NCBI GenBank assembly: GCA_003551625.1
Contig: PUNC01000243.1
Coordinates: 1 to 60,741, forward strand
Direction of reading: 5' to 3'
DNA from: PVC group bacterium
GTDB lineage: Bacteria; Auribacterota; Erginobacteria; Erginobacterales; PUNC01
DNA length: 60,741 nt
The position numbers and the translations under genes were made by a program. Under the pieces are notes generated by a model, which saw only the letters and a list, made by a program, of their open reading frames with translations, searched no databases and was not told the origin of the DNA. Positions 8,903-56,087 of this stretch are shown here, in pieces. Position 1 is the first letter of the stretch. Each line of letters starts with the position of its first letter.

Positions 8903-10324
8903 TTAATCCGCCGCCTCCACGACCTCGATCATCGCGGGATCGTCGATCACGATCTGAACCTGATCCCGGTGAGTGTCCACCATTCCGGTGACCCGGACGG
9001 TTTTATTGAGGTAGTTGGCCCGGAGGGAGCCGAAGGCTTCGGTGTCGAAAATCGCCACGGTCAGCCGATCCCGGGAGTCGCGGTAGAAGTTCAGGCGGGA
9101 GGGGGCTCTGGTTCGGCTGATATAAACGTCGACGATCTGGCCTTCAACAACCACCGTTTCTCCCACCCGGTCCATCGCTTCTTCCGGCGTCACCACCGGG
9201 AGCTCCACATCCAGAATCTCGATGTCTTCGGGGGAACGCAGCATAATCTGTTTCTGTCCCCGGTGCTCGTCCACCCGGCCCCGGACGCGGACCTTCTGGT
9301 TTAAAAACCGGCTGGGGTCGCCAAAGCCGCGGTCGGCGCCCTCCCGGGTCAGGGGGAAGAAGGCGATGGTAAGGCTTTCGCGAAAATCGCGGTGCGTGTT
9401 CAATCTCACCGGGCCGGTCTGGCCGCGGGCGGCCGGATCGTAGAGATTGACGATCCTGGCCTCGACCACGACCTCCTGTCCCAGGCGGTCCATCGCCTCC
9501 CGCCAGGTCAGCGGTTCCGAAGGGTCGGCCTCCACTTCCACCTCCGCCTCTTCCGTCTCGATGATCTCGATGTCGTCGGGCGAGTTCAGCATAATCTGCT
9601 TCCGGCCCTGATAGTCGGCGACCCGGCCGCGGACGCGGACCACCTGGTTCAGAAACCGGTTGGGATCGCCGAAACCGCGGTCGGCGCCCTCCCGGGTCCG
9701 GGGGAAGTAAACAAAGGAGAGGCTTTCCCGGAAATCGCGGTGCGTGTTCAGGCTGACCGGTCCCGTGCGGCCGCGGGCCTCCGGGTCGTGAACCCCGACA
9801 ATCCGGGCCTCGACGGTGACGGTCTGCCCGACCCGGTCCATCGCCTCCTGCCAGGTCAGCGGCTCCGACGGATCGGAAGGTTCTTCCGGTTCCGCGTCCG
9901 CTTCCTCGACGCGCGAAGGCAGGGCGCCGACGATCTCGATATCGCCGGGAGAGCGGAGCATAATCTGTCTCCGCCCCTGGTGATCGGCCACCCGGCCGCG
10001 GACGCGGACTACTTGGTCGCGGAAACGTTCCGGGTCTCCGAAACCCTGCTCGGCGCCCGAACGGTCGCGCTTGAAGAAGACAAACGAAAGACTGGTGCGG
10101 TGGTCGTCGTCGGTATTCAGGCTCACCGGCCCGCTCCGGCCGTGTTCCTCGGGGTCGTAAACGTCGACAATCATCGCCTCGACGGTGACGGTCTGCCCGA
10201 CCCGGTCCATCGCCTCCTGCCAGGTCAGAGCCTCGCTCGCGGAACCGGCGGGCGGAAAGGACAGCAACGCGAAAGACAGCAGGCCGGCAAAGACGGCTCC
10301 AGCGGTTCTTCCGATAACGCTCAT
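8903..10324 (-). CDS. Secreted protein with four tandem OB-fold-like repeats
   Basis: Signal peptide MSVIGRTAGAVFAGLLSFALLSFPPAGSASEA. Then 4 repeats of LTWQEAMDRVGQTVTVEA.IV....GPV.LN......L..V.F......FGDP.RF..Q.VRVRGRV....G..QIML.SP.DIEI. GGGAGG sits 7 nt before the ATG. Confidence 0.8.
   Translation of the reverse strand: MSVIGRTAGAVFAGLLSFALLSFPPAGSASEALTWQEAMDRVGQTVTVEAMIVDVYDPEEHGRSGPVSLNTDDDHRTSLSFVFFKRDRSGAEQGFGDPERFRDQVVRVRGRVADHQGRRQIMLRSPGDIEIVGALPSRVEEADAEPEEPSDPSEPLTWQEAMDRVGQTVTVEARIVGVHDPEARGRTGPVSLNTHRDFRESLSFVYFPRTREGADRGFGDPNRFLNQVVRVRGRVADYQGRKQIMLNSPDDIEIIETEEAEVEVEADPSEPLTWREAMDRLGQEVVVEARIVNLYDPAARGQTGPVRLNTHRDFRESLTIAFFPLTREGADRGFGDPSRFLNQKVRVRGRVDEHRGQKQIMLRSPEDIEILDVELPVVTPEEAMDRVGETVVVEGQIVDVYISRTRAPSRLNFYRDSRDRLTVAIFDTEAFGSLRANYLNKTVRVTGMVDTHRDQVQIVIDDPAMIEVVEAAD
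8906..10228 (-). repeat. Intragenic tandem repeats (about 369, 348, 318 and 288 nt units)
   Basis: Units at 9860-10228, 9512-9859, 9194-9511 and 8906-9193. Units 1-3 are highly similar at DNA level (for example the recurring ccatcgcctcc.gccaggtcag). Unit 4 is divergent. Confidence 0.85.
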
Positions 10325-18649: not shown

Positions 18650-20794
<2,145 letters not shown>

Positions 20795-20803
20795 TCCGTA
20801 ATC

Positions 20804-20829
20804 GGTCCCGACGAAAGACTGTCGGGATC
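20804..20829 (+). terminator. Stem-loop just after glgX (weak terminator candidate)
   Basis: ggtcccgac-gaaagact-gtcgggatc gives a 9-bp stem with one G-U pair. No U-run follows. Confidence 0.25.
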
Positions 20830-20949
20830 TCCGTCGAAGCCGGACAGTTCCGCTTCGCTACGATGATCCGTGATCAGGAAAAGGCCCAGTCCCTCGCCCC
20901 CTTTTTGTTAACTACGAATCACGCAGATAGGCACAGATGCTAACCGGGC

Positions 20950-21185
20950 TGGACTGACAGGTTTGGAAAATATATTAACTCTGGAGCCATAGAGAACACG
21001 TACTCTTACACGTACTCTTACACATACTCATTCAAACCGGGTTATTCCGACAGGATTGGAAAAGCGTGTATATCTTAGGAAGATTGGATATTTTTAACCC
21101 GCGGTGAAACTTTGCGGGTCGATATTCGCCGCTCCCCGAACCTTGAACCCGGAACCTTTGAACCCCGGCACTTATCAACTTTTTT
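20950..21185. repeat. Mosaic intergenic repeat island, copy 1
   Basis: Modules shared with 46.9-47.1, 54.4-54.76 and 55.9-56.09 kb: 12-nt units tcttacacRtac (20992-27), an identical 30-mer (21092-21121 = 54695-54724), and an identical 35-mer (21146-21180 = rc of 54541-54575). Confidence 0.85.
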
Positions 21186-21199
21186 AAGAGGAGGTTATC

Positions 21200-22444
21200 A
21201 TGCCCGAGATCAGACCGTTCGCGGCCGTCCGGCCGAAACCGGAACTGGCGGCAAAGGTGGCCAGTCCGCCCTACGACGTGCTCGACAGCGATGAAGCCCG
21301 CCGGATGGCCGAAGGAAATCCTTTGAGTTTTTTGCACGTGACCAAGCCCGAAATCGACCTCGATCCCGCCATCGATCTCTACGACGACCGGGTCTACGCC
21401 GCCGGGAAGGCTAATTTCGAAAAACTTATCGGCCAAAAGGTCCTCATTCGCGAAGAGAGGCCCGCCTATTACTTCTATCGCCTGGTCTGGAAGGGCGCGG
21501 CCCAGACCGGGCTGGTGGCGGCGGCCTCCACCCTCGACTACGACCGGGACCGGATCAAAAAACACGAGCTTACCCGGCACGACAAGGAGACCGACCGGGC
21601 CCGCCACATCAGCTCGCTCAACGCCAATACCGGCCCGGTCTTCCTGACTTACCGGGCCCGCGAAGACCTCAACCGGATAGCCGAAGACGCCGCCGGGAGC
21701 GATCCGCTCTACGACTTCACCGCCGACGACGGAATCCGCCACACCGTCTGGAAAGTCGAAGCGGCCGCGGCGATCGGGGAGATCACCTCCATCTTCGCCG
21801 AGCTCGAGCACCTCTACGTCGCCGACGGCCATCACCGCTCGGCTGCCGCGGCGCGGGTGGCCCGGGCGCGGCGCGAAAAAAATCCCGGCGCGGACGGGAA
21901 GGAGGAATACAACTATTTCCTGTCGGTGATCTTTCCCCACGATCAGCTCCGGATCCTCCCTTACAACCGGGTGGTGGCCGACCTCGGGGGACTTTCCCCG
22001 AAAGAGTTCATCCGCGCGGTCGAAAAAAGTTTTTCGGTCGCCGATTCGCCGGGCGGCCGGCCTTTCCAACCGGACGGCCCGAGACTTTTCGGAATGTACC
22101 TGGAAGGCGGCTGGCGGAAGCTTTCCGCCCGGCCGGACAGTTTCCCGGAAGACGATCCCGTCGGATCCCTGGACGTCTCGATCCTCCAGGATAATCTCCT
22201 GGCCCCCGTTCTCGGCATCGCCGACCCGCGCCGGGACCAGAGGATAGATTTCGTCGGCGGGATCCGGGGGCTGGAAGAGCTGGAGCGCCGGGTGAACGCC
22301 GGCGGGGGGGTCGCCTTCTCGCTCTACCCCACCTCGGTGGATCAGCTGATGAAGATCGCCGACGCCGGCTCGATTATGCCCCCGAAATCAACCTGGTTCG
22401 AGCCCAAGCTTCGTTCGGGGCTGCTGATCCACCAGCTCGATTGA
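21200..22444 (+). CDS. DUF1015 domain-containing protein
   Basis: MPEIRPFAAVRPKPELAAKVASPPYDVLDSDEARRMAEGNPLSFLHV is the typical DUF1015 N-terminus. Strong SD aagaggagg 6 nt upstream. Confidence 0.85.
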   Translation: MPEIRPFAAVRPKPELAAKVASPPYDVLDSDEARRMAEGNPLSFLHVTKPEIDLDPAIDLYDDRVYAAGKANFEKLIGQKVLIREERPAYYFYRLVWKGAAQTGLVAAASTLDYDRDRIKKHELTRHDKETDRARHISSLNANTGPVFLTYRAREDLNRIAEDAAGSDPLYDFTADDGIRHTVWKVEAAAAIGEITSIFAELEHLYVADGHHRSAAAARVARARREKNPGADGKEEYNYFLSVIFPHDQLRILPYNRVVADLGGLSPKEFIRAVEKSFSVADSPGGRPFQPDGPRLFGMYLEGGWRKLSARPDSFPEDDPVGSLDVSILQDNLLAPVLGIADPRRDQRIDFVGGIRGLEELERRVNAGGGVAFSLYPTSVDQLMKIADAGSIMPPKSTWFEPKLRSGLLIHQLD

Positions 22445-38361: not shown

Positions 38362-38558
38362 GGCGTTACCTCATTCTAATAACGGAAATCAGGCTGTAGG
38401 GGCTTAGACTGTTAGACTATTAGGTAACGACTGACGAACCGGGCTGAAAGAAAGGGTCCGTGGTAAAGCAAGCTGTTTAGCCTGTTAGCCTTTCAGTCTA
38501 TTAGGCAAAGCCAAGAATTAAAACTTTGCGCCTTCGTGCCTTTGTGTGAGTTTGTAGT
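38362..38558. repeat. AT-richer stutter-repeat island between xseA and xseB
   Basis: gcttagac/tgttagac/tattaggt (38402-25). ctgtttagc/ctgttagcc/tttcagtc/tattaggc (about 38474-38507). aaactttgcgccttcgtgcctttgtgtgagtttgtagttt. Confidence 0.7.
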
Positions 38559-44154: not shown

Positions 44155-44438
44155 AATAATAGCCCTACCCTTCTAAAAAGCGGAAGAGCAAGGCTTGCAC
44201 CCCGGCGGCACGGAACGGTTGAAACGCCCGGAAAGAAAACAGTTTAACCGCTATTCACCCCGTGCCGGTAACGGCGCAATCCCGGTTTGCGCCGGGGTGG
44301 AGATACGCATTTCGCTGATTGAACCTTAAGTAAACAGCTTAACAGCTGCGAAACGATCATCTACAAACCTTCTTGCCTTGCCTGTATCCGCTTGAACTTT
44401 AATCCCCTTCTTGCCGGGGAGCGGTTGTAAACGGGAGG
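44155..44438. repeat. AT-richer intergenic island with short stutters (weaker member)
   Basis: taaacagc/ttaacagc/tgcgaaac (44331-54). cttcttgcc is repeated at about 44369 and 44407. Hairpin ggcgcaa-N7-ttgcgcc (44273-93). Confidence 0.4.
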
Positions 44439-46841: not shown

Positions 46842-47125
46842 AAAGCTTTCGTAACCAACTCTTTCGTAGCGCAGCCCTTTAGGGCTGCCCCAGTGAGGCA
46901 GGGCTAAAGCCCTGCACTACGAACTGCGAATTAAGGATGCCCGGCAGGCCGAGTTGATAAGATAATAAGTTTATAAGTTGACAAGTGCCGGGGTTCAAAG
47001 GTTCCGGGTTCTCGGAATAATCCGGTTTGAATGAGTATGTGTAAGAGTATGTGTAAAAGTACGTGTAAGAGTACGTGTTCTATATGTCTCCAGAGTTAAT
47101 ATATTTTCCAAAACTTATTAAGCGT
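46842..47125. repeat. Mosaic intergenic repeat island, copy 2 (between pheS and pheT)
   Basis: Twin hairpins 46865-46921. gataagat/aataagtt/tataagtt/gacaagtg (46956-87). 35-mer core 46976-47010. aataatccggttt 47016-28. Four 12-nt units 47035-82. ctccagagttaatatattttccaaa about 47089-47113. Confidence 0.85.
46970..46998 (-). promoter_or_regulatory. Promoter-like site inside the repeat module (TTGAAC-17-TATAAA), facing pheT
   Basis: The minus strand reads TTGAACcccggcacttgtcaactTATAAA. The same arrangement occurs at 54535-54563. Confidence 0.4.
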
Positions 47126-51100: not shown

Positions 51101-51174
51101 TGGGCGGTACTGGATTCGAACCAGCGACCTCTACGATGTCAACGTAGCGCTCTAACCAACTGAGCTAACCGCCC
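51101..51174 (-). tRNA. tRNA-Val (anticodon GAC)
   Basis: The minus strand reads GGGCGGTTAGCTCAGTTGGTTAGAGCGCTACGTTGACATCGTAGAGGTCGCTGGTTCGAATCCAGTACCGCCCA. Cloverleaf by eye, anticodon loop TTGACAT, no encoded CCA. Confidence 0.9.
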
Positions 51175-51194
51175 GGAAAGGGTAAGCCGGGATT

Positions 51195-51223
51195 AATATT
51201 CCCGTAATTCGAAGCGAAATCAA
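51195..51223 (-). promoter_or_regulatory. Candidate promoter for tRNA-Val/thrS operon (TTGATT-17-AATATT)
   Basis: The minus strand reads ggcTTGATTtcgcttcgaattacgggAATATTaatccc, 20 nt before the tRNA 5' end. Confidence 0.3.
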
Positions 51224-51226
51224 GCC

Positions 51227-51280
51227 AAAAAAATCCCCGGCCCGGCTCACTGCTCCCAACGGGGACGGAGCCGGGCCGGG
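51227..51280 (-). terminator. Rho-independent terminator after the Pro-rich small gene
   Basis: The minus strand has cccggcccggctc ... gagccgggccgggg (13-bp GC stem) followed by aTTTTTTT. Confidence 0.7.
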
Positions 51281-51301
51281 AAGAGCGGAAGTCAGGCGGA
51301 T

Positions 51302-51562
51302 TTAATGCGGCGGTTCTTTCTTTTCTTCCGGAGACCGCTGCTCGCCTCCTTCCGGAGGCTGCGATTTCTCTTCCGCCGGGGGAGGCGGCTGATCTTCCGC
51401 CGGGGGACGCGGCCTCTCTTCCGCCGGGGGACGCGGTCTCTCTTCCGCCGGGGGACGCGGCTCTTCGGGAGACGGTTTCGATGGTTTCTTGCCCGCGTTG
51501 GCAAGCATATAAACGACTATCACAGCCACCACGGCCACGATGAAAATCCAGATAACACCCAT
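51302..51562 (-). CDS. Small membrane-anchored protein with Pro/Glu-rich 8-aa repeats
   Basis: MGVIWIFIVAVVAVIVVYMLA TM helix, then (E/D)xPxPPAE x4-5. AAGGAGG 5 nt before the ATG, with its own promoter and terminator. Confidence 0.7.
   Translation of the reverse strand: MGVIWIFIVAVVAVIVVYMLANAGKKPSKPSPEEPRPPAEERPRPPAEERPRPPAEDQPPPPAEEKSQPPEGGEQRSPEEKKEPPH
51370..51465 (-). repeat. 4 x 24-nt in-frame tandem repeat
   Basis: cttccgccggggga(c/g)gcgg.. units begin at 51370, 51394, 51418 and 51442. Confidence 0.85.
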
Positions 51563-51621
51563 AATCGGCCTCCTTTCCCGAGAACCCGGTTAAAACCGGC
51601 AACCAATCGTTATGCTGATCT

Positions 51622-51650
51622 TTTATATCTTTTCCCCCATCAAAGGTCAA
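51622..51650 (-). promoter_or_regulatory. Candidate sigma70 promoter (TTGACC-17-TATAAA) for the Pro-rich small gene
   Basis: The minus strand reads aagacTTGACCtttgatgggggaaaagaTATAAAagatc. Confidence 0.45.
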
Positions 51651-51730
51651 GTCTTTATTTCCGGGGGAGCGGCCCTCCGAAAATCGGATAAACCGGAATA
51701 ATCAGGTTTAAACCGGCCGGGCTGAAATGC

Positions 51731-54392: not shown

Positions 54393-54761
54393 CTCAAGCT
54401 TCCAGGTTCAGGGGTTCAAAAGTTATAAAGCAGATTCCAGATTCTAGATTTTGGATTTCAGTCAAGCCCGGTTCCGCCCATTTTTCATCTCGGGATAACA
54501 GAAGCCCAGCAGGCCAAGTCGATAAGATGATAAGTTTATAAGTTGATAAGTGCCGGGGTTCAAAGGTTCCGGGTTTGTTCAAAGTTATTACTCGGAGCAT
54601 AAAATAGTTTACTAAGGAGAGCATAAAATAGGTTGCACGTCATTGCGAGGAGCGAAGCGACGAAGCAATCTCATTGGACATTGCGAATTGGAAATTTTAA
54701 CCCGCGGTGAAACTTTGCGGGTCGGCATTCGCTTTTAACGCTATGCCCTATGCGCTATGCG
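54393..54761. repeat. Mosaic intergenic repeat island, copy 3
   Basis: cagattc x4 stutter (54431-58). gataag 8-nt stutter (54521-52). 35-mer (54541-75). gagcataaaata x2. cattgcgaggagcgaagcgacgaagcaatc (54641-70). 30-mer (54695-724). ctatgcS x3 (54741-61), which runs into the CDS stop. Confidence 0.85.
54535..54563 (-). promoter_or_regulatory. Promoter-like site inside the repeat module (TTGAAC-17-TATAAA), facing ispH-ogt
   Basis: The minus strand reads TTGAACcccggcacttatcaactTATAAA. Confidence 0.4.
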
Positions 54762-55863: not shown

Positions 55864-55866
55864 CAT

Positions 55867-56087
55867 TTCTCCTTGGGCAGGCTTTTCATACTGCTTTCCT
55901 AAGATATCCCCGTTTTTCCAAACCTGTCGGAATAATCCGGTTTGAGTATGTGTAAGAGTACGTGTGAGAGTACGTGTAAGAGTATGGGATGGATAAGAGT
56001 TCACCTTCGACATTGGACATTGAGAATTGGGAGTTGGACATTCGCTTTTAACCCTGCGCGCTCTGCGCTTCGCGTCTTTTCCCCATC
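55867..56087. repeat. Mosaic intergenic repeat island, copy 4
   Basis: ttttccaaacctgtcggaataatccggtttga (55914-45). 12-nt units gtaYgtgtRaga (55946-93). cattgga 7-nt stutter x5 (56011-45). ctgcgcg/ctctgcg/cttcgcg (56054-74). Confidence 0.85.

Follow-up and report, generated by a model that had tools for sequence, protein, structure and literature searches.

A composite modular repeat in the spacer between glgX and a DUF1015 gene of a PVC group bacterium

The 60,741-nt contig PUNC01000243.1 of an uncultivated Planctomycetes-Verrucomicrobia-Chlamydiae (PVC) group bacterium, analysed here over its full length and called the window, carries a gene for a GlgX-type debranching enzyme that is followed on the same strand by a gene for a DUF1015 protein. 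The spacer between them measures 405 nt and has a GC content of 49 % versus a window average of ~65 %, in line with the original prediction of a low-GC spacer in a GC-rich background. Within it, 226 nt (20956–21181) consist almost entirely of blocks that are also present in three other spacers, namely pheS/pheT, DegT/ispH and GT2/DegT. We refer to the four spacers as L1 (glgX–DUF1015) to L4, and to sequences from other genomes by three-digit numbers. The element is real and non-coding, and the predicted mosaic of short recurring modules is supported: with several modules, a regular pattern and multiple intergenic copies, it is a composite interspersed intergenic repeat. On balance, the L1 region is probably a copy of a lineage-specific family of such repeats, dispersed through recombination and slippage and including modules for promoter and leader.

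Blocks shared by four spacers

About ten blocks (H, E, H', A, B, C, C', D, F and G) are distributed over at least four spacers of the 60-kb contig at 88–100 % identity. The features of L1, its neighbouring genes and the other loci are as follows.

18650–20794 (+): GlgX-type debranching enzyme gene, with CBM_48 and alpha-amylase domains
20795–20955 (+): unique 5' part of L1, where a mini-array of the heptamer GTAATCA overlaps the stop of glgX and a hairpin of 7 bp without a U-tract lies at ~20806–20828
20956–20970 (+): C' copy 1, GACAGGTTTGGAAAA, overlapping the 5' end of module A
20963–20997 (+): module A, ttggaaaatatattaactctggagccatagagaac, with its L2 counterpart at 47079–47112 (−)
20996–21029 (+): module B, an array of 12-nt units in variable number, ACACGTACTCTT x 2.8
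21030–21050 (+): module C, attcaaaccgggttattccga, with other copies at 47012–47032 (−) and 55927–55943 (−)
21049–21081 (+): modules C' copy 2 and D, with their L4 counterpart at 55896–55928 (−)
21082–21135 (+): hairpin block E with short H/H' flanks, core 21092–21129, stem acccgc/gcgggt
21136–21181 (+): module F, a 15-nt mini-array x 2.3 containing TTGAAC
21200–22444 (+): DUF1015 gene, downstream of glgX
46842–47125 (−): L2, pheS–pheT spacer with A-B-C-F-G followed by two unique hairpins (46863–46923); TTGAAC-N17-TATAAA at 46970–46998
51688–51712 (−): degenerate fragment of module C
54393–54747 (−): L3, spacer between the gene of a DegT-family aminotransferase and an ispH/lytB fusion, with a heptamer array, H, E, H', the direct repeat ctattttatgctc x 2, F, G and more heptamer arrays; TTGAAC-N17-TATAAA at 54535–54563
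55864–56087 (−): L4, GT2 glycosyltransferase–DegT spacer with H, H', B, C, C', D and a 32-nt leader with a Shine-Dalgarno sequence

The correspondences between the loci were largely anticipated by the original prediction and can now be given with their extent. A reverse-complement copy of the L1 block had been placed at about 47012–47114 with a single 12-nt indel, and two alignments to the reverse complement of L2, 20959–21034 with 47040–47115 (76 nt, 92 %) and 20996–21050 with 47012–47066 (55 nt, 95 %), are indeed offset by one 12-nt unit, the best L1–L2 match in blastn-short being 68 nt long at 95.6 % (E = 6e-27). The 12-nt units, described as the reverse complement of two other arrays, form module B at three loci (20996–21029, 2.8 copies; 47033–47078, 3.8 copies, minus strand; 55944–55984, 3.4 copies, minus strand), and the unit GTACTCTTACAC occurs eight times in the window at up to one mismatch versus 0.02 expected. 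The module noted as ccgacagg.ttggaaaa and assigned to the reverse complement of ~55900–55930 is part of a 50-nt alignment at 90 % between 21032–21081 and the reverse complement of 55896–55945. Identity of the 30-mer at 21092–21121, with its acccgc/gcgggt hairpin, to 54695–54724 on the same strand was found as described and extends to 38 nt at 95 %, and the reverse-complement copy of the 35-mer 21146–21180 at 54541–54575 is exact over 36 nt (21146–21181 and 54540–54575), with 97 % identity to 46975–47011. The 15-nt repeat GACAGGTTTGGAAAA lies at 20956–20970, at 21049–21063 with one mismatch, and at 55914–55928 on the minus strand, three matches versus 0.12 expected. Its occurrence at both ends of the L1 block, reported earlier as ttccaa.cctgtc, therefore stands; the permuted or tandem origin read from it does not, because the repeat brackets A-B-C in L1 only and not in L2 or L4, and for the same reason it is not a general boundary or target duplication. 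The unique 5' part of L1 has no match elsewhere in the window in blastn-short.

Several of the blocks are themselves mini-arrays of varying copy number, with units of 12 nt (B), 15 nt (F), 8 nt (G) and 7 nt (H'). The modules have a high AT content compared with the window, at 44–49 % GC. Mini-arrays of period 6–16 are concentrated between the genes, with nine of the 38 in the window falling within the 6.1 % of its DNA that is intergenic (p = 4e-4), and the spacers of both the window and its relatives are full of heptamer and octamer arrays such as GTAATCA, CAGATTC, GCATAGC, GACATTG and AAGTTGAT.

Small open reading frames (ORFs) in the spacers found no support, and none is continuous with a neighbouring gene; an 8-codon upstream ORF ahead of the DegT gene is conserved in the relative L023, its Shine-Dalgarno sequence is not. 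A CRISPR array, in which direct repeats of 23–50 nt alternate with unique spacers of similar length, was ruled out, as the 12-nt units run strictly head-to-tail without spacers. The local hairpin E would fit a structured non-coding RNA or riboswitch, and nothing else favours this explanation or that of an assembly artefact, to which together we give almost no credence. In an Rfam 15 search of the window only tRNAs reached the gathering thresholds, with nothing credible at E ≤ 1 and the best sub-threshold matches, to eukaryotic or unrelated families, at 16–20 bits versus cut-offs of 40–60 bits; the element thus matches no Rfam family, as had been proposed for checking. Its folding z-scores range from −1.2 to +2.3 on both strands versus shuffled sequence, the sole strong fold (L2, z = −3.5) being due to the two unique hairpins next to pheT, outside the repeats, and a candidate helix in C-C' shows mismatches, not compensatory changes, among L4, L1 and L023. 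A structured RNA was consequently rejected on the folding z-scores and Rfam results. The earlier concern about an assembly artefact was likewise dismissed, because the repeated blocks are at most 76 nt long and embedded in unique sequence, and relatives have their genes around L1 and L2 in the order seen here.

Module order, relatives and mode of spread

Read on the sense strand, the modules follow each other as C'-A-B-C-C'-D-(inverted H-E-H')-F in L1, A-B-C-F-G in L2, H-E-H'-...-F-G in L3 and H-H'-B-C-C'-D-leader in L4. Shared modules are collinear (A-B-C, listed for L1, L2 and L4; C'-D in L1 and L4; F-G in L2 and L3; H-H' in L3 and L4), and the single order H-(E)-H'-A-B-C-C'-D-F-G accommodates all four loci, which vary by presence or absence of blocks. 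The statement in the original prediction that module order differs between loci was accordingly not borne out: the apparent difference is mostly a strand effect, since the blocks are collinear once the spacers are read on the sense strand. All four spacers sit between co-directional genes. Inversion is confined to L1, where the hairpin block E, together with the short sequences gcgaat and tccaat on its sides, is inverted relative to the L3 copy at 54695–54738 (−). Because H joins H' directly in L4 without E, this block amounts to an indel.

Among named organisms, the closest homologues of DUF1015 and PheS are 60–65 % identical and belong to Candidatus Erginobacter, Euphemobacter (Candidatus Auribacterota, PVC group) and 'PVC group bacterium'; closer relatives were found via protein clusters at ≥90 % identity. 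In L007, GlgX and DUF1015 each share 71 % identity with their counterparts in the window and are encoded in the same order, with 15 nt instead of 405 between stop and ATG, which marks the 405-nt spacer as lineage-specific. L011 and L012 (PheS 65 % identical) keep the gene order of the window from thrS to dxs and have pheS–pheT spacers of 264 and 214 nt, unrelated in sequence to L2, and their spacers hold mini-arrays of their own, often as inverted pairs forming long hairpins, together with their own dispersed hairpin family. As these spacers are long and yet unrelated, long array-rich spacers are a trait of the clade, with sequences specific to each genome. The DegT homologues L024, L025 and L026 are not syntenic with the window, and the window spacers found no match in L024.

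Block content differs even between relatives that are ~93 % identical in DNA. L027, 94 % identical across ispH–ogt, has just the final 57 nt in common with the L3 spacer; upstream of these lies an F-like array with one 15-nt unit fewer. L028 and L029 have DegT genes with 92 % DNA identity, a region upstream that is unrelated to L4 and lacks the L4 modules, and, after the DegT stop, one extra heptamer unit followed by H. The heptamer array concerned, GCATAGC, overlaps the DegT stop in the window (54739–54761) and is one unit longer in the 92 %-identical L028 (1243–1277), so that its copy number varies across the stop codon. In relatives, contigs terminate within B, E and F, which would be expected if these blocks are repeated in the relatives' genomes as well.

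The DegT protein of L023 is 82 % identical to that of the window (79.5 % in DNA, 59.6 % at third codon positions), while the end of B together with C-C'-D upstream of it agrees at 60 of 62 positions and no position differs between −31 and +11 around the ATG; the two conserved parts are split by an insertion of 90 nt (63–152) between module D and the DegT leader. Purifying selection on this spacer was considered and withdrawn, as the closer DegT relatives L028 and L029 have an unrelated upstream region. Spacer and gene of L023 instead have decoupled histories, by recombination near the start codon or through a paralogous locus, a pattern that is no proof of constraint. Between part of the 90-nt insertion and the 3' end of D there is complementarity (tcttaggaaagcaggag / ctcctgccttcc..tcctaaga) that would give a leader hairpin, and the insertion contains a GATTCTG heptamer pair resembling an array in L3.

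A non-autonomous mobile element, similar to a MITE (miniature inverted-repeat transposable element) or a repetitive extragenic palindromic (REP) sequence, or a nest of such elements, mobilised in trans by a transposase encoded elsewhere and without host function, would account for several of these observations, among them the presence/absence differences with the empty site in L007 and the missing L4 modules in L028 and L029, the indel E found in both orientations between H and H', the near-identical cassette beside a divergent gene in L023, the contig breaks inside B, E and F, and the AT-richness relative to the genome. We nevertheless regard it as unlikely. An inverted-repeat search of L1–L4 (seed 7, minimum 10 nt) revealed no terminal pair shared between copies, only one 10-nt AT-rich pair in L2, and target duplications common to the copies were not seen among the four loci; the terminal inverted repeats by which a MITE is recognised are thus missing. 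No transposase, integrase or REP-associated tyrosine transposase (RAYT) is encoded among the ~50 ORFs of the window scanned against Pfam, whose matches are ordinary chromosomal genes throughout. Absence of a transposase and of clear terminal inverted repeats had both been noted from the start. L1 has no blastn match in plasmid and phage collections, and none was found in the viral contig collections scanned. Module order, moreover, is collinear and on the same strand at every locus, whereas nested MITEs insert either way. The sole empty site, the 15-nt gap of L007, is too diverged to define insertion junctions, as GlgX and DUF1015 are only 71 % identical. For the lineage-specific composite repeat that we favour, copies would instead spread and reshuffle by recombination or gene conversion together with replication slippage, not by transposition, and the blocks would be retained as intergenic 'punctuation', the L1 element separating DUF1015 from glgX.

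Promoter, leader and terminator candidates

The pattern TTGAMC-N17-TATAAA occurs three times in the window versus none in 100 shuffles, and two of the sites are the F/G junctions of L2 and L3. There, TTGAAC-N17-TATAAA matches 10 of 12 sigma70 positions on the sense strand, ~130–140 nt upstream of pheT (L2) and ispH (L3), and between the two loci the stretch from −35 to −10 is identical at 28 of 29 positions and the rest of G at ~28 of 34. The third site (51622–51650, minus strand) lies outside the repeat family, upstream of a small membrane-protein ORF, and is retained in L027 with both hexamers kept and three spacer positions changed. Sigma70-like sites with N17 and up to three mismatches number 15, where 5.2 ± 2.2 would be expected, and at least seven (2034, 11637, 13443, 46970, 51622, 54535 and 60596) are placed upstream of a gene in the proper orientation. 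Owing to the enrichment of the pattern, the independent conserved site and the sequence conservation between L2 and L3, we take F/G as a candidate sigma70-type promoter with its initial transcribed region.

Modules C' and D contain CCGACA-N18-TATCTT in L1 (21047–21052 and 21071–21076) and L4, and together with the leader they may constitute a second, weaker putative promoter-leader cassette. This would be the sole promoter candidate in L1, because no −10 hexamer is left in that copy of F: it ends just short of the TATAAA that follows in L2 and L3, and adjoins the Shine-Dalgarno sequence of the DUF1015 gene. In L3, block E consists of a 7-bp hairpin followed by UUAAAAUUU, ~25 nt past the DegT stop, and in this orientation may act as a weak terminator-like hairpin; canonical intrinsic terminators were found in neither L1 nor L2.

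A bolder view, which we hold to be rather unlikely, would have the spacers of this PVC lineage draw on a common pool of short-period mini-arrays, combined into portable 'punctuation cassettes' of terminator-like hairpin, upstream array, promoter and leader. Such cassettes would be copied between loci and exchanged among co-occurring species by recombination, splitting ancestral operons (glgX–DUF1015, pheS–pheT) and swapping promoters independently of the genes they drive.

Several points weigh against a composite repeat carrying promoter and leader modules as we propose it. The same orientation in four of four loci is weak evidence on its own (p ~0.125), and four full copies and one fragment are all the copies seen in the 60-kb contig. 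The −10 hexamer of F/G is without the usual final T, for which reason the promoter scan tool did not report it, and the C'/D motif, recognised by eye, agrees at only eight of 12 positions and likewise went unreported by the tool. The distance to the start codon is variable, with F lying 18 nt from the ATG in L1 and ~130–180 nt in L2 and L3, and the 12-nt array B is given no role. Finally, the blocks extend at 95–100 % identity beyond what a promoter requires, which fits copying rather than selection.

The function of the modules may alternatively lie at the RNA level, with a G-poor, C/A/U-rich, unstructured sense transcript of B-C and F-G serving as a loading site for Rho (a rut site), S1 or an RNase and thereby ending or processing the upstream transcript. 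The three most G-poor 78-nt stretches of the minus strand, which is the sense strand for L2–L4, are in fact these modules (6, 6 and 9 G), folding of the sense RNA does not exceed that of shuffled sequence (z = −1.0, +0.1 and +2.3), and the lack of canonical intrinsic terminators in L1 and L2 would agree with such a role. The 12-nt unit furthermore offers one YC dimer per 12 nt and is rich in CA, CT, ACA, CTT and CAC, descriptors that, like YC dimers, are associated with Rho-dependent terminators (Nadiras et al. 2018, PMC6144790). The Rho of the host, however, may not share the preferences of E. coli Rho; termination between pheS and pheT would upset the balance of two subunits belonging to one enzyme, and the modules do not stand out in the window by their C-minus-G excess. 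A Rho site deduced from the excess of C over G hence fails, with G-poverty alone standing out, and an intercistronic RNA element appears quite improbable to us.

Binding sites for one DNA-binding regulator, with the 12-nt repeats and a CGGA-N4-TCCG palindrome in C as operators and the loci as its regulon, seem very unlikely. Three to four direct 12-nt repeats together with C always lie just upstream of a promoter-like motif, and a C-like motif is found ~45–75 nt upstream of the site at 51622–51650, with a better match in L027. The distance from array to promoter motif varies between loci, however, the period of the array is out of helical phase, identity spans whole blocks of 30–70 nt and not just short motifs, and the downstream genes (DUF1015, pheT, ispH and DegT) are without a common pathway. 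Occurrence of the 12-nt unit in other PVC metagenome-assembled genomes would also speak for a regulator. Short arrays of GAGTACGTGTAA are present in genomes of Pirellulaceae, Kiritimatiellae and Victivallales (L001 5661–5760, L002 2775–2860, L003 1870–1900, L004 2104–2200 and L006 3796–3825), five of the six genome matches belonging to the PVC group, and in three of these genomes the arrays form an inverted pair that would fold into a long intergenic hairpin. When a metagenome collection was scanned for the 12-mer pattern, copies from Pirellulaceae and GT-rich, eukaryote-like sequences came up, whereas a 24-mer of F found no match in a metagenome scan. The idea of a conserved PVC-wide 12-nt element was discarded, since the cross-phylum matches are too few and partly too low in complexity.

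Known intergenic repeats and further observations

Enterobacteria, Neisseria, pneumococci and mycobacteria are all well known to carry composite intergenic repeats. No description was found for Auribacterota-like PVC bacteria, where gene regulation is essentially unstudied, so that the kind of element is known and the family itself is new. BOX elements of Streptococcus pneumoniae are composite repeats of the form boxA-boxB(n)-boxC (Croucher et al. 2011, PMC3049150), and the element resembles them as an intergenic composite of fixed module order with a variable-number tandem module in its middle, here the 12-nt B, whose copies vary in module content and length between loci and strains. Single modules can increase or reduce the expression of the gene downstream, a putative property here, and both elements are probably co-transcribed with their neighbours. 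Assignment to BOX was nevertheless rejected, because BOX has terminal inverted repeats, target duplications and stable stem-loops, none of which was found in the four loci, where the fold is no better than that of shuffled sequence; the tandem unit of 12 nt is much shorter than boxB, and the host phylum is a different one. This distinction is based on architecture and fold, and the sequences are presumably unrelated.

Bacterial interspersed mosaic elements (BIMEs) of enterobacteria and neisserial intergenic mosaic elements (NIMEs) are likewise mosaic combinations of intergenic motifs, tied to recombination and to effects on transcripts. BIMEs are built from G+C-rich palindromic REP units and NIMEs from repeat units flanked by inverted repeats, whereas the element is AT-rich and mostly non-palindromic. 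A REP/BIME core, an imperfect G+C-rich palindrome of ~35–40 nt, was excluded on these grounds, a stem (6–7 bp) being present in E only, and REP/BIME sequences are linked to RAYT transposases, of which the window has none. Mycobacterial interspersed repetitive units (MIRUs), described by Supply et al. 1997 and reviewed in Delihas (2011, PMC3184786), are 40–100-bp units with small ORFs overlapping the ends of neighbouring genes and with short direct repeats at filled sites. The two have in common a position between operon genes (here pheS–pheT, and glgX–DUF1015, which is contiguous in a relative), the direction of the flanking genes, variable-number tandem units and absence from the homologous site of a related species; the ORF continuity and flanking direct repeats of MIRUs are lacking in the element.

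The short tandemly repeated repetitive (STRR) heptamer repeats of cyanobacteria are short intergenic heptamer arrays. TAACTGA direct repeats are intergenic in Beggiatoaceae, Cyanobacteria and Bacteroidetes (MacGregor 2015, PMC4679880), and the arrays of the window are similar in having two to six direct copies of a 7–8-nt unit, intergenic and often near start codons, upstream of unrelated housekeeping genes. One heptamer dominates those genomes, whereas many units are used here and whole multi-array blocks are duplicated between loci.

Should F/G and C'/D prove to be portable promoters, they would afford a first view of promoter structure in this lineage and show how operons break up and rewire. 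The variable 12-nt and 7–8-nt arrays would serve as strain markers, and the repeats account for the breaks of short-read assemblies at these sites in relatives. As an element of a known kind, the repeat changes no general principle.

Further repeats and conserved motifs were observed in the window and in its relatives. In the window, the xseA–xseB spacer (38365–38558) holds mini-arrays of octamers (TTAGACTG x 2.5 and tttagcctgttagcctttcagtctattagg) together with one of the cttTgcgc type, similar in style to the element, to which no other locus matches. A 24-nt tandem repeat of four copies (51367–51461) lies inside the ORF of a Pro/Glu-rich membrane protein (~51165–51563, minus strand), with two units fewer in L027. 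A tandem repeat of 348–369 nt (9216–9876; copies at 9191, 9539 and 9908 with 65–76 % identity) falls inside an ORF at 8903–10324 (−) with weak OB-fold and DUF5818 matches, which looks like an internally repeated protein.

Relatives L011 and L012 carry an octamer-array hairpin (caccaagg / cactaagg ... cttggtg) at the same position upstream of rny, in L011 also in pheS–pheT (L011 11021–11125 and 15925–16010; L012 15890–16000), which represents an unrelated dispersed repeat family of similar style. A motif of ~27 nt (AARTTGCG.GCGCAGCGAGCTAATTT and variants) is found directly upstream of several start codons in both genomes (L011 2365–2394, 6370–6396 and 11257–11284; L012 8475–8500, 11207–11234 and 15990–16015) and was not seen in the window. 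The rny–ymdB spacer of L012 (17694–17737, minus strand) matches the Rfam Acido-Lenti-1 RNA motif at 44.3 bits (gathering threshold 37), with no match in the window. The pheT–rarA spacer, finally, is ~300 nt long in three genomes (L011 13685–13992, L012 13635–13940 and window 44155–44438), is without an Rfam match and has conserved blocks between L011 and L012, and may contain a small RNA or a small gene.

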